A DNA stretch of 64,000 nucleotides. Origin: an uncultured Pseudomonadota bacterium (GTDB lineage Bacteria > Vulcanimicrobiota > Vulcanimicrobiia > Eremiobacterales > Eremiobacteraceae). The first letter of the stretch is position 1. Each line of letters begins with the position of its first letter. A program made the position numbers and the translations under genes. Shown here in pieces: positions 41,609-45,058 of the stretch. The stretch lies in contig CAVTNB010000003.1 in the NCBI GenBank assembly GCA_963736005.1, positions 64,001-128,000 on the forward strand. The letters are read 5' to 3'. The notes under the pieces were generated by a model. The model did no database searches. It was not told the origin of the DNA and was given only the letters and a program-made list of their open reading frames with translations.

Positions 41609-42310
41609 CTACTTCGTCAGCGTGTGGTTGGCGGCGTGAAGGAGAATGACGGAGGCCTGTTTCTGGATGGCGGTAATATCAAGCCGCGAGAGGTTATTTG
41701 CCTTCTCATTGTAGCTGGCAATCGCTTTGATCGCGGCCTGCACCTGGGGCTGCAAGGTCTGGAAGATCGTCGGACTGCTCCCCGCGAATTGAGTAAACTT
41801 TTGCAGCCCGGGTTTGGCCAACCCTTGGGCAGTTGCGAGGTTGTAACCCCAATCGAATTCCGAGGGAACGGTTTTGCCCACCAGTGCGGTTTTGTTCCCG
41901 AGCCAGAAAAAGAAGCAGGCCTTGGTATCCAGGTCCGTGCCCAGCCATTTGTCCAAAGCGCCCGAGTTTATCTCGGAATTGTTCCAAGCATCCTGTTGGG
42001 CTTGCGACCAGCCGGAATAATTCCGGAACAATGGCAGCCCGAGACTCGTTTTGACGAGGCTGTCGTAGCTGGCCAAAACCTGCGGCGTCGCACCGGCGTT
42101 GACGAACAATTGACGCCCCGAGGCAAACTCGGCCCTGATCCCGTCCGGCGAAAAGTTTTTCAGATTATTAATATTATTGGTGAATTCCATAAACTGGCCT
42201 GCGTTGAAATAATCAAACGGACGCGCCGTCTTTGTTTGCACCGCCCAAACTGGTAGAACCGACAGGACGAGCACGGCCAAGACCGCGATCGCAGGAGCGA
42301 AAAGACGCAT
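41609..42310 (-). CDS. Secreted hypothetical protein (helical)
   Basis: GGAGGT RBS; signal peptide MRLFAPAIAVLAVLVLSVLPVWA; no recognised motif. Confidence 0.65.
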   Translation of the reverse strand: MRLFAPAIAVLAVLVLSVLPVWAVQTKTARPFDYFNAGQFMEFTNNINNLKNFSPDGIRAEFASGRQLFVNAGATPQVLASYDSLVKTSLGLPLFRNYSGWSQAQQDAWNNSEINSGALDKWLGTDLDTKACFFFWLGNKTALVGKTVPSEFDWGYNLATAQGLAKPGLQKFTQFAGSSPTIFQTLQPQVQAAIKAIASYNEKANNLSRLDITAIQKQASVILLHAANHTLTK

Positions 42311-42719
42311 GAGAACCTCCTTGGGCATGGCTGCGTGAACAAAAAAAATGCGGAACGCTGTCATGTCGCGGCCCTTTGCGACACCGACGCTTCGAACAAG
42401 AACGTGCTGGGACAGGCCCGAGGTCCTTCGAGCCAAGTCTCCCCGGAGCCGGAGACCTGCGCCGCCCTTTCGCCGCGATGGCTCCGATTCGCTCTAGTCT
42501 CTTAGTCGCGAAAATCTCTCTTTGCTGTTGGGCGGAGCCGGTGATACAGTGGACCGTCAATTGCGTTGCAAGAACACCGAACCGATAAGCCACCATGGGA
42601 ATCTTTCTTGGGATAAGGCCGCGCTCGTTGGCGCTACCAATTCAACGGTTATGCATTTCCACAGCCGTGTACACCTTGGGAGCCTAGGAAGCCCGTGAGA
42701 AGGTCGCTAAATCACCGGC

Positions 42720-43154
42720 ATGTGGCGGCGAATTCCCGCTTTGGCGATCGTGGCGACGTTGGGTGTGCTCGCGGTAGCGGCGTGTTCTCGTGGTGGTGGT
42801 GACTACGGGCCGGCCTCGGACGTGCAAGTCCTCCGAACGATGTGGCAAGCGGAATCAACAACCGGGAAGATCGCGCAAGTCGTCGTGGTGGGGAATTACG
42901 GTGTCGTCGACGTAACCGACACCGAAGGGAACGTCAATTACGTCGAGCTTTTCGTGAAAGGCGCTTCCCAGGTGCCCGGAGCGTGGCAAAAAGACATCGG
43001 CCGGCTCTACTCGAGCAACATCTACGGTCCGATTGCCGCGTGCGCGTTCACCCAGCGTGGAGTTCCGCAAGACGTAGCGGACCAGATTGTTGCTAACGAC
43101 ACGCGCCTCTCGGCCGCGGCGCGGCAAAACCCGCAGGCCGGATGCGGCGGTTGA
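42720..43154 (+). CDS. Hypothetical lipoprotein
   Basis: Signal peptide with lipobox LAVAA-C; two further Cys residues that could form a disulfide. Confidence 0.65.
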   Translation: MWRRIPALAIVATLGVLAVAACSRGGGDYGPASDVQVLRTMWQAESTTGKIAQVVVVGNYGVVDVTDTEGNVNYVELFVKGASQVPGAWQKDIGRLYSSNIYGPIAACAFTQRGVPQDVADQIVANDTRLSAAARQNPQAGCGG

Positions 43155-43401
43155 GTCTGCCGGATTAGCAACGTAACCGACGTCCCACGTCACGCCATGC
43201 TGCTCACAACGGCCGACATATATGCCTCTAGAAAACGTCTACCGCAAGAGCGGCTAAAGCACCGTCCTTTGCGTTCTCGTTCGTTCTGGCGGGTTTTTAG
43301 GCTAGGGCTAACTTTCTGGGATGTTCAGCGGTTTCCAGCGAATCTCGCACAGTGGCTCCAAGGCCGTCAAATAAAGCTCAAAAACCTTACTGCGTGAAGC
43401 G

Positions 43402-43474
43402 TAGCCCCAAGGGAATTCGAATCCCTGTCTCCGCCTTGAGAGGGCGGCGTCCTAGGCCTCTAGACGATGGGGCC
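43402..43474 (-). tRNA. tRNA-Glu (CTC)
   Basis: GGCCCCATCGTCTAGAGGCCTAGGACGCCGCCCTCTCAAGGCGGAGACAGGGATTCGAATTCCCTTGGGGCTA; cloverleaf, anticodon loop CT-CTC-AA, CCA not encoded. Confidence 0.95.
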
Positions 43475-44129
43475 AAGAAATGCTCCCGGGCAAGGTCTCG
43501 AACCTCGAGTCTCGCGGTTCAGAGCCGCGCGTGTTACCAGTTACACCACCCGGGACATCGCCGTTCATTCGCTGCTGACGGACTCTTTGCTTTCTGTTTC
43601 GTGTTCCAAAAGTCGGCGTTTGGCTGTGACAATTAGGGCACAGCATGCGCAAATTTTCCAGCCGATGATCATTCCGAATGCCGTTGCGATGATCCAGGTG
43701 GATTGAGAGAGGTCTATCTCTCCAGTTGGTAATACCGCACTCCTCGCATTCATTCTTTAAGAGCCCCTCCTCGAGCAGACGTCGCTTGACCGATAACCTG
43801 GATTTAGATTCCCTCAAGACTCGTTCGAGCGGCCAGCGAGGCACCCGAGGCGTGATATCGTGGCGTTTGACCGCTTTACGCCACGCTTCGGCAGAGAACC
43901 CAAATTCGACCCGACTTGCCCGGAAGGTGTGACCCGCTTCGTAGTATTTCCGGACTGCATTCCAGTCAACACTAATGACTCGACTTTTCGTCTCAAGGTG
44001 ACCGCACTGAATCGCTTTGTACCAGGCGGCGATGCTAAACCCAAAGTGAGCCATGCACGCATCCCGATTGTTCCCCGCATCGTGGTAGCGTTGAATTGCA
44101 GCCCAATCGTATAGTTTTCGTCCCATCAT
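43452..44129 (-). CDS. HNH endonuclease with two N-terminal helical repeats; as assembled, the ORF runs through tRNA-Gln
   Basis: CEECG...LDHRNG..NDHRLENLRMLCPNCHSQT (HNH + Zn finger); repeats DWAAIQRYHDAG..FGFSIAAWYKA and DWNAVRKYYEAG..FGFSAEAWRKA. Confidence 0.9.
   Translation of the reverse strand: MMGRKLYDWAAIQRYHDAGNNRDACMAHFGFSIAAWYKAIQCGHLETKSRVISVDWNAVRKYYEAGHTFRASRVEFGFSAEAWRKAVKRHDITPRVPRWPLERVLRESKSRLSVKRRLLEEGLLKNECEECGITNWRDRPLSIHLDHRNGIRNDHRLENLRMLCPNCHSQTPTFGTRNRKQRVRQQRMNGDVPGGVTGNTRGSEPRDSRFETLPGSISWPHRLEA
43483..43555 (-). tRNA. tRNA-Gln (CTG)
   Basis: TCCCGGGTGGTGTAACTGGTAACACGCGCGGCTCTGAACCGCGAGACTCGAGGTTCGAGACCTTGCCCGGGAG; anticodon loop CT-CTG-AA, GTTCGA T-loop. Confidence 0.93.
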
Positions 44130-44230
44130 CAAACTCCGCACTTGTCGAGCTTTGCCCAAATTTCACACATCTGTTGAAAACGTCCATGGGCCACGCGGGT
44201 TGTCGTCGATGAACGCCGAAAATCGCCGCG

Positions 44231-45058
44231 ATGACTTTGGATATGACGACTGTAGAGTTGCTCGTGCGTTCGGCCTTCGCCGATCGCGAACGGTTAGCGG
44301 ATCCGGACGTCGGAGCCGCCGTCGAGCAGGTTATTGAGTCGCTGGATAGTGGCAAGTTTCGGGTCGCTGAATTTGATGGCAACAGCTGGGTTGTCAACGA
44401 CTGGATGCAGCAAGCGATCTTGCTCTATTTTGCGCTGAGAGAAGCGAGCGCGATCGACGCCGGACCTTTGAGCTTTTGGGATAAGATTCCAATGAAGAAA
44501 TCGTGGCGGCACACGGGCGTGCGCGTCGTGCCGCCAGGAGTCGCTCGATACGGAAGCTACCTTGCTCCCGGCGTTATTTTGATGCCGGCATTCGTGAACA
44601 TCGGTGCGCGGGTGGGCGAAGGCACGATGATCGACACGTGGGCAACCGTCGGCAGTTGCGCCCAAGTAGGCGGCGGCGTTCACATTTCCGGAGGTGTCGG
44701 GATTGGCGGCGTGCTCGAGCCTCCGAGCTCGCGCCCAGTCATCATTGAGGATGGAGCATTCATCGGCTCGCGCTGCATTATTGTCGAAGGCGTCATGGTC
44801 GAGCGCGAGGCAGTGCTCGGCGCGGGCGTCGTGCTCACCGCGTCAACGCCGATCGTCGATGTCACCGGATCGAAGCCGGCGATGTCGCGGGGCAAGATAC
44901 CAAAGCGCGCGGTCGTCATTCCGGGAATGCAACCGAAACAATATCCCGCAGGAAATTATTCCACACCTTGCGCGCTGATCATCGGACAGCGTTCGGAATC
45001 AACCGATAGAAAAACATCGCTCAACGCTGTGCTGCGCGAACACGGGTTAGCGGTCTGA
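44231..45058 (+). CDS. dapD: Tetrahydrodipicolinate N-succinyltransferase
   Basis: LDSGKFRVAE, FWDKIP, RVVPP, VNIGA.V..GTMIDTWATVGSCAQ, HISGGVGIGGVLEP, KTSLN. Confidence 0.95.
   Translation: MTLDMTTVELLVRSAFADRERLADPDVGAAVEQVIESLDSGKFRVAEFDGNSWVVNDWMQQAILLYFALREASAIDAGPLSFWDKIPMKKSWRHTGVRVVPPGVARYGSYLAPGVILMPAFVNIGARVGEGTMIDTWATVGSCAQVGGGVHISGGVGIGGVLEPPSSRPVIIEDGAFIGSRCIIVEGVMVEREAVLGAGVVLTASTPIVDVTGSKPAMSRGKIPKRAVVIPGMQPKQYPAGNYSTPCALIIGQRSESTDRKTSLNAVLREHGLAV

Follow-up and report, generated by a model that had tools for sequence, protein, structure and literature searches.

An HNH nuclease gene abutting a tRNA-Gln/tRNA-Glu pair in the Eremiobacteraceae: empty and decayed alleles, damage-type operators in relatives and phage kinship

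Free-standing homing endonuclease genes beside tRNA genes are textbook features of phages T4 and T5, and to our knowledge bacterial chromosomes have not been recognized as a home for them. The subject here is an HNH nuclease gene that runs into a tRNA-Gln/tRNA-Glu pair in a 64,000-nucleotide stretch of DNA (the window; contig CAVTNB010000003.1 of assembly GCA_963736005.1, positions 64,001 to 128,000) from a member of the Eremiobacteraceae. In the available portion of PMC2330249, the nuclease gene segB of T4 is described as co-transcribed with the tRNA cluster, and maturation of tRNA-Arg is proposed to cut its mRNA before the stop codon; the same control of expression by tRNA processing is proposed for the F-Tfl genes of T5. 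These proposals are a published precedent for the suggestion, made in the first-pass annotation of the window, that tRNA processing would cut the mRNA of the present gene ahead of its stop codon. HNH genes have been noted in viral tRNA clusters by a survey (PMC6409571, available text), and 13E12-family HNH genes of Mycobacterium tuberculosis are reported to be RecA/LexA-dependent (PMC8151990 and PMC4181829, available text). A literature search for papers containing both 'Eremiobacterota' and 'HNH' found none, and searches that paired HNH with LexA or with tRNA clusters yielded only these four papers.

The gene is probably a chromosomal one of homing type, largely vertically inherited but dispensable, and in the window co-transcribed with the tRNAs. 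New in comparison with the described systems are the chromosomal lineage itself, settled at a single tRNA operon throughout a class of uncultured soil bacteria, a duplicated, putatively DNA-binding repeat, damage-type operators and a full series of decay states. The first-pass annotation had raised the possibility of an undescribed selfish element; a class-wide chromosomal lineage is indeed new, but the kind of element is not undescribed, as nucleases of phage tRNA clusters are known.

The nuclease gene and its run into the tRNAs

The features of the locus, in window coordinates, are the following.

43452..44159, minus strand: HNH nuclease open reading frame (ORF) as assembled, 235 aa from the first TTG
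44129 or 44126, minus strand: likely ATG start, giving 225 or 224 aa, with GGAG upstream at 44137-44134
43989..44117, minus strand: N-terminal repeat 1, a three-helix unit, plausibly helix-turn-helix (HTH)-like (BLASTP against repeat 2; AlphaFold (AF2) helices 9-41)
43851..43979, minus strand: N-terminal repeat 2, a three-helix unit, plausibly HTH-like (BLASTP, AF2, weak fold matches)
43620..43748, minus strand: zinc-finger HNH (beta-beta-alpha-metal) core with CxxC, DH, N and CxxCH (PF01844, invariant columns)
43452..43555, minus strand: C-terminal tail encoded by tRNA-Gln, a 7-nt spacer and the first 23 nt of tRNA-Glu; not a conserved part of the protein
43482..43555, minus strand: tRNA-Gln, anticodon CTG, sole copy in the genome (ARAGORN and Rfam agree)
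43401..43474, minus strand: tRNA-Glu, anticodon CTC, sole copy in the genome (ARAGORN and Rfam agree)
44159..44198, minus strand: putative promoter of an HNH-tRNA co-transcript, an upstream stretch homologous to the -35 side of the promoter that precedes the tRNAs at empty sites (comparison of 20 same-family loci)
44231..45058, plus strand: dapD (tetrahydrodipicolinate N-succinyltransferase), the divergent neighbour that marks the syntenic site

As the first-pass annotation had it, the ORF covers the whole of tRNA-Gln and stops inside tRNA-Glu (TAG, 43454-43452), with coordinates confirmed by ARAGORN and Rfam. The start is likely to be the ATG at 44129 or 44126 because relatives begin at MGRK.YDW.

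The protein consists of two repeats of about 43 aa, a helical linker and a zinc-finger HNH module, in that order, and the duplicated repeats and zinc-finger HNH core first recognized by eye were borne out. The two repeats are homologous (BLASTP E 3e-11, 15/34 identical) and the Pfam HNH model PF01844 aligns to aa 138-180 (E 1.2e-4, 22.6 bits against a cut-off of 21.4). The zinc cysteines C138, C141, C174 and C177 (CxxC...CxxC) and the HNH residues H157, N169 and H178 are invariant in alignments of 32 and 40 sequences. Such a CxxC...CxxC pair is typical of the McrA/T4 endonuclease VII type, which would place the protein in the McrA-like subgroup. Pfam scanning of the protein returned HNH and HNH_3 models only, with no N-terminal DUF222 domain. 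The window copy departs from two nearly invariant residues (C82 to S and G100 to H). A protein search returned 1576 relatives at E ≤ 1e-3, mostly of 183-196 aa.

An AlphaFold model built from 40 sequences (mean predicted local distance difference test score 89) comprises two three-helix units corresponding to the repeats, two linker helices, a beta-beta-alpha core (strands 144-147 and 160-163, helix 165-168) and a less certain C-terminal helix. Foldseek against the PDB gave nothing at E ≤ 1e-3. With VIA-align, small HTH domains of resolvase, Hin, GcrA and Tc3/mariner were matched at Z 4-5 and the Gme HNH at Z 4.2, weak values that are leads rather than assignments, and the similarity in fold to McrA, Cap5, GVE2 and Gme HNH was weak throughout. 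Since the fold searches gave weak matches, the term HTH-like is plausible rather than proven for the repeats. The invariant catalytic and zinc residues, together with a ratio of non-synonymous to synonymous substitution rates (dN/dS) of 0.19, are indications from sequence only that the gene is active.

A one-base assembly error hiding an earlier stop would make the run into the tRNAs an artefact. The TGA to which the first-pass annotation pointed for this case does exist, in another frame and ending at 43565, and 42/77 relatives stop before the tRNA, but the error itself is hardly credible. The gene of G262, a separate assembly whose dapD and HNH genes are 96% and 89% identical to those of the window, reads through in the same frame, and in a protein alignment many homologues of varied source share the tRNA-encoded tail; because of both, the read-through is not attributable to assembly error. 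The ORFs of relatives enter the tRNA in any of the three frames and their stops fall in all three relative to it. Two of these entry frames meet stops in the D-arm (tRNA nt 8-10, 13-15 or 20-22), and the tail of the window ORF is long because its entry frame, the third, has no early stop. No run covering this stretch was found among public sequencing data: the best contained ≤ 0.19 of the sampled words, and the pieces obtained at the locus were almost only tRNA-Glu of other organisms, plus one contig of a diverged relative. For annotators the warning is that ORFs running into tRNA genes can be real.

One genomic site, with and without the gene

A genome scan with one genome per species gave 243 loci, the best 80 of which were kept for linkage counts. 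Nearly all of these are labelled Eremiobacterota, Vulcanimicrobiota or WPS-2. The first-pass annotation had asked how often homologues lie against tRNA genes: in 77/80 loci tRNA-Gln(CTG) follows on the same strand within 100 nt (≤ 100 nt) of the tRNA-proximal HNH motif, and tRNA-Glu(CTC) lies behind it wherever the contig continues. Outside the pattern are L004 (contig end) and L065 and L066, where an intact HNH copy is convergent on the far side of the tRNA pair, L065 having in addition a degenerate copy in the usual place. Of the 77 ORFs, 42 stop ahead of the tRNA, 23 in its first 22 nt and 12 beyond these, so that the stop codon is inside the tRNA in 35/77. Extra or tandem copies occur in L059, L078, L023, L051 and L065 and in several of the surveyed genomes.

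A few of the kept loci have other labels. Some loci with typical Eremiobacterial synteny stem from bins named otherwise (L002, proteobacterium; L008, Limnocylindrales; L038, Acidoferrum; L046, Alphaproteobacteria; L055, Rhodospirillales), probably through mislabelling or mis-binning of the contigs. Across 401 sampled genomes of the phylum, matches at E ≤ 1e-3 were limited to two families of one class, f1, to which the window belongs (16/29 genomes), and its sister f2 (218/297), with four borderline matches elsewhere; many of the f1 matches at this threshold are translated tRNA only.

The f1 survey covered 24 genomes with dapD, in which the gene order dapD, tRNA-Gln, tRNA-Glu is conserved (what is said of G233, G344 and G128 depends on genomes flagged unpublished). 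The gene is present in eight (G000, the window genome, and G262, G233, G389, G186, G381, G278 and G344), two have a 3' remnant, 13 are empty and one (G188) is cut by a contig end. Empty alleles in which dapD adjoins tRNA-Gln, whose existence the first-pass annotation had made a test of its proposal, are thus found in 13/24 genomes, with dapD 95-130 nt from tRNA-Gln, and in the two remnants (G155 and G041) only the last ~65 nt of the gene are left, joined to the dapD side. Several of the eight copies are decayed, with a frameshift in the zinc finger in G186, a stop at codon 9 in G381 and matches in three frames in G344, while those of G233 and G278 are cut by contig ends. In the dapD tree, G000, G262, the g9 genomes and remnant G155 form one clade (95), its sister G103 is empty, and remnant G041 groups with the empty g4 genomes; presence and absence of the gene need a minimum of two changes. 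Among five good f2 genomes examined for want of a strong match, four are empty, with 110-349 nt between a nucleoside triphosphate (NTP) transferase gene and tRNA-Gln, and one (G097) has a decayed HNH remnant.

This is presence/absence polymorphism at one genomic site, as for free-standing homing endonuclease genes, and the gene is dispensable and repeatedly lost. All stages in the life cycle of a selfish gene (intact, frameshifted, remnant, empty) are found side by side. They provide a natural series in which to follow the settlement of such genes in cellular genomes, their use of tRNA promoters and tRNA processing for expression of their own, and any part that they may play in the exchange of tRNA genes.

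Between the window and G262 the HNH gene has 27 non-synonymous and 36 synonymous differences (dN/dS 0.19). For dapD the ratio is 0.048, and synonymous divergence is similar in the two genes (dS 0.34 for HNH against 0.41 for dapD). The window copy has therefore been under selection and vertically inherited since the split from G262. More generally, the gene appears to be mostly vertically inherited and still under purifying selection. HNH and neighbour-gene distances, however, correlate only moderately (r 0.48; the maximum of 500 permutations was 0.23). There are also discordant pairs, in which neighbour genes are 93% identical and the HNH genes only 56-57%, and the two tandem copies of L078 sit in different major clades of the HNH tree.

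These are indirect hints of exchange, and the tRNA genes give others. The f1 family has two unlike types of tRNA-Gln(CTG), whose distribution agrees neither with the dapD tree nor with tRNA-Gln(TTG). The type of the window occurs at 88-92% identity in the distant g4 group. In g5, the sister group, it was not found; the tRNA-Gln(TTG) of that group is 96% identical. Across 91 loci, mean pairwise identity is 0.68 for tRNA-Gln(CTG) against 0.90 for tRNA-Glu(CTC). An arms race on tRNA-Gln(CTG) was considered and dropped, as conservation between families is about equally poor for the control, tRNA-Gln(TTG); for the same reason the high variability of tRNA-Gln(CTG) is no peculiarity of this locus. 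In G279 (L104), the 5' half of a tRNA-Gln(CTG) of the other type, degenerate, lies between dapD and an intact tRNA-Gln, directly in front of the latter, either a replacement scar or the leftover of a tandem pair. Old tandem paralogues, differentially lost, would account for all these hints equally well.

The neighbours of the gene are dapD, or an NTP transferase and a glycosyltransferase (ORF clustering of the flanks was noisy from high-GC shadow ORFs and was used only to choose neighbours for Pfam). Downstream of tRNA-Glu in the window are two ORFs that have no Pfam match, 41609-42436 (minus strand, 275 aa) and 42720-43154 (plus strand, 144 aa), the latter with a signal-peptide-like start. 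In several relatives phage-type integrase genes lie just downstream of tRNA-Glu(CTC), for example L042:4872-6200 (minus strand); their position suggests that islands or prophages integrate at tRNA-Glu. The cluster-7 ORFs of L008, L015, L037, L053, L058, L070, L071 and L076 are further such genes. Short repeats resembling repetitive extragenic palindromes or miniature inverted-repeat transposable elements, TGTCACCCTGAGC...GTCGAAGGG, fill the intergenic space of empty sites L127, L128 and L130, and are also found upstream of the HNH gene in L053, L060, L064 and L076.

A nuclease that guards the tRNA-Glu integration site against phages or islands might be expected beside such integrases, and the protein does have weak matches to the HNH part of the Zorya type II protein ZorE (NCBIfam, 25.2 bits; PADLOC, E 5e-10). 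The NCBIfam match covers only residues 136-186, some 50 residues, and falls far below the cut-off of 600. No Zor partner genes are found among the neighbours (dapD and the tRNAs; NTP transferase and glycosyltransferase), and the best PADLOC model is 'homing endonuclease' (HEase, E 5e-17) and no defence effector. A defence role is therefore very improbable.

Promoters and damage-type operators

In 11 of 12 empty f1 sites inspected, a textbook tRNA promoter, TTGACAC-N17-TATAAT, lies 25-45 nt before tRNA-Gln. Carriers in f1 have kept the -35 side (CCCGCGT...TTGAC), now upstream of the HNH gene, and their -10 box is replaced; in the window the stretch reads CCGCGTGGCCCATGGACG, then TGTGAAATT. The cassette therefore lies between the promoter and the tRNA, from which co-transcription of HNH gene and tRNAs may be inferred in the window. 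A scan of 43200-44400 for a consensus sigma-70 promoter found none (0.7 expected), a null that agrees with, but does not establish, the view in the first-pass annotation that there is no separate tRNA promoter.

Two arrangements exist among relatives. In the first f2 class (36 loci, mostly of one major HNH clade) the 3' end of the ORF contains the tRNA promoter TTGCAAG-N17-GTGTAGTATAAC, and the TAG of its -10 box serves as the stop codon; this promoter also precedes tRNA-Gln in 5/5 examined f2 sites lacking an intact gene. The second class, which includes the clade of the window, has no such tRNA promoter, and its ORFs run up to or into the tRNA. In a best-pair scan of 76 loci, a tRNA promoter was found only in the long-spacing class. 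The sequence GAAAGCAAA...GCGAAT is conserved in the last 45 nt of the ORF, even in both remnants.

Most relatives have a promoter of DNA-damage type of their own, which goes beyond the view of the first-pass annotation. Up to 200 nt upstream of the start (≤ 200 nt) were scored for a Cheo-type LexA box (CGAAC-N4-GTTCG, ≤ 1 mismatch) and for the palindrome TGCCA-N6-TGGCA. The 79 scorable loci comprise 33 with the Cheo-type box only, 29 with the palindrome only, eight with both and nine with neither; one or other operator is thus present in 70/79, the Cheo-type in 41/79 and the palindrome in 37/79. Background rates in 1443 random 206-nt intervals of the same loci are 2.9% and 0.8%, respectively. 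The window and all five scored f1 loci have no operator with ≤ 1 mismatch (five of the nine loci with neither are f1), and upstream of the window copy there is only a 12/16 look-alike of the operator of its own lexA.

The regulon to which these motifs belong is recognizable in the genomes. The lexA gene of the window genome (G000:C5:5410-5601, minus strand) has two Cheo-like boxes about 100-200 nt upstream, TCGAACATATGTTTGA and TCGAACAAACGTTTGC, and an imuA-like gene for a RecA-fold protein, beside a DUF885 gene, has a perfect Cheo-type box some 20 nt from its start (G000:C1:561634). TGCCA-N6-TGGCA (L117:1501-1518 in G403 and L118:1501-1518 in G404, among others) occurs 10 times in three genomes, against one occurrence of a control pattern, and lies directly before lexA, recA and a gene for a DNA-damage oxygenase. 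Both motifs precede lexA in 5/5 f2 genomes (L212-L216), so that the palindrome looks like a second damage-regulon operator and not a replacement LexA box. That it might be a lineage-specific LexA box was considered and rejected, as all 5/5 genomes, irrespective of the operator at their HNH gene, also have Cheo-like boxes before lexA.

Such operators raise the question of whether the protein is a domesticated host nuclease of the DNA-damage response, which would cut damaged or branched DNA once induced and whose tRNA site would be a frozen accident of a selfish ancestor. The operators upstream of 70/79 loci argue for this, the same motifs standing before lexA and the palindrome before recA as well, as do the two Cheo-like boxes of the window's own lexA, the dN/dS of 0.19, the presence of the gene in 218/297 f2 genomes and the RecA/LexA dependence reported for the 13E12 HNH genes of M. 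tuberculosis (PMC8151990 and PMC4181829, available text). Against it are the many losses and decays in good genomes, and the window and the five scored f1 loci, which have neither operator. Damage control, moreover, would suit a selfish or toxic nuclease too, and a role in repair leaves both the position flush with the tRNA and the relatives in phage tRNA arrays unexplained. We consider domestication doubtful.

A homing-type gene co-transcribed with the tRNAs, the reading that we prefer, also has evidence that weighs against it. Purifying selection and retention in most f2 genomes (the 218/297 at E ≤ 1e-3) are two such points. The f1 copies group as a single clade when the HNH tree is left unrooted (SH-aLRT 92), compatible with vertical descent, and tandem paralogues with differential loss could explain the mismatches between host and HNH gene without any transfer. 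Between families, full-length matches were found for tRNA-Gln(TTG) in 11 and for tRNA-Gln(CTG) in 12 of 48 genomes. A weak internal promoter for the tRNAs may lie near the 3' end of the ORF, at the conserved GAAAGCAAA...GCGAAT, and the operators look like a sign of long residence under host control, fitting a host function as well.

For the homing-type gene we envisage the following course. The two tandem HTH-like repeats would bind a DNA site, which the zinc-finger HNH module would cut. During its ancestral spread the nuclease would have cut alleles without the gene, which would have been copied into them during repair together with flanking DNA, a gene conversion of empty alleles. In the window the gene would now be transcribed from the captured tRNA promoter, nuclease mRNA and two tRNAs being one transcript. 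Cleavage by RNase P at the 5' end of the tRNA would leave a stop-less mRNA on which ribosomes stall, and transfer-messenger RNA (present at G000:C3:145744-146094) may clear the product, keeping the nuclease scarce.

It is also conceivable, although unlikely, that nuclease and tRNAs make up one functional unit in three ways: co-movement with tRNA-Gln(CTG), a race with RNase P and a damage switch. The cassette would then move, or be replaced, with its own tRNA-Gln(CTG) allele, amounting to tRNA-gene homing outside phages; if true, the scatter of two unlike types against the host tree within one family would be accounted for. Output of the nuclease would be set by a race of ribosomes against tRNA processing, and with a stop inside the tRNA in nearly half of the species, transcripts matured by RNase P would be stop-less. 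A DNA-damage switch would operate on top of this in most lineages.

Phage relatives and described systems

The linker and HNH part match phage protein families (phrog_10822, E 2e-29; phrog_14736, E 2.7e-21). In IMG/VR, 137 stretches encode relatives, and 75 loci were kept for viral counts. Lying next to tRNA genes, the habit anticipated in the first-pass annotation, extends to these: in 74/75 there are tRNA genes at most 3 kb away, almost always on the same strand. In 18/45 viral loci (non-duplicate, with the motif and a downstream tRNA on the same strand) the ORF stops -7 to +36 nt from the tRNA start. One viral locus, L133, is of the full-length bacterial type with tRNA-Gln and tRNA-Glu. The 229 matching named phage records align to the second repeat, linker and HNH part only, at 30-54% identity. 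Among them, gene 113 (HNH) of Escherichia phage mistaenkt ends 1 nt before tRNA-Leu, and Edwardsiella phage PEi26 (AP014715.1) has an unannotated HNH ORF (L208:1501-1878) between tRNA-Leu and tRNA-Met that overlaps the annotated tRNA-Met. These similarities show sequence kinship with known phage homing-type nucleases.

Four described systems come closest. The REP13E12 genes (DUF222-HNH) are likewise HNH genes to which no role is assigned, induced by RecA/LexA, multi-copy and selfish-looking; the present gene differs in having no DUF222 domain and, in the window copy, no LexA box, and the available texts on REP13E12 record no tRNA linkage. The F-Tfl genes of T5 are, in the available description that likens them to segB, nuclease ORFs in a tRNA gene cluster, as here. 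SegB of T4, as far as the available text describes it, is likewise free-standing among tRNA genes, with an ORF that ends at a tRNA 5' end and with mRNA cleavage proposed as a brake on expression; in contrast, it is a GIY-YIG rather than an HNH nuclease and is phage-borne, spreading in co-infections, whereas the gene described here is chromosomal and encodes two HTH-like repeats. The HNH genes of phage tRNA arrays (mistaenkt, PEi26, phrog_10822) share with it a homologous nuclease module and the same strand as the tRNAs, but their products are of ~145-180 aa with ≤ 1 repeat and they lie in arrays of many tRNAs, compared with the single chromosomal tRNA-Gln/tRNA-Glu pair of the Eremiobacterial gene.

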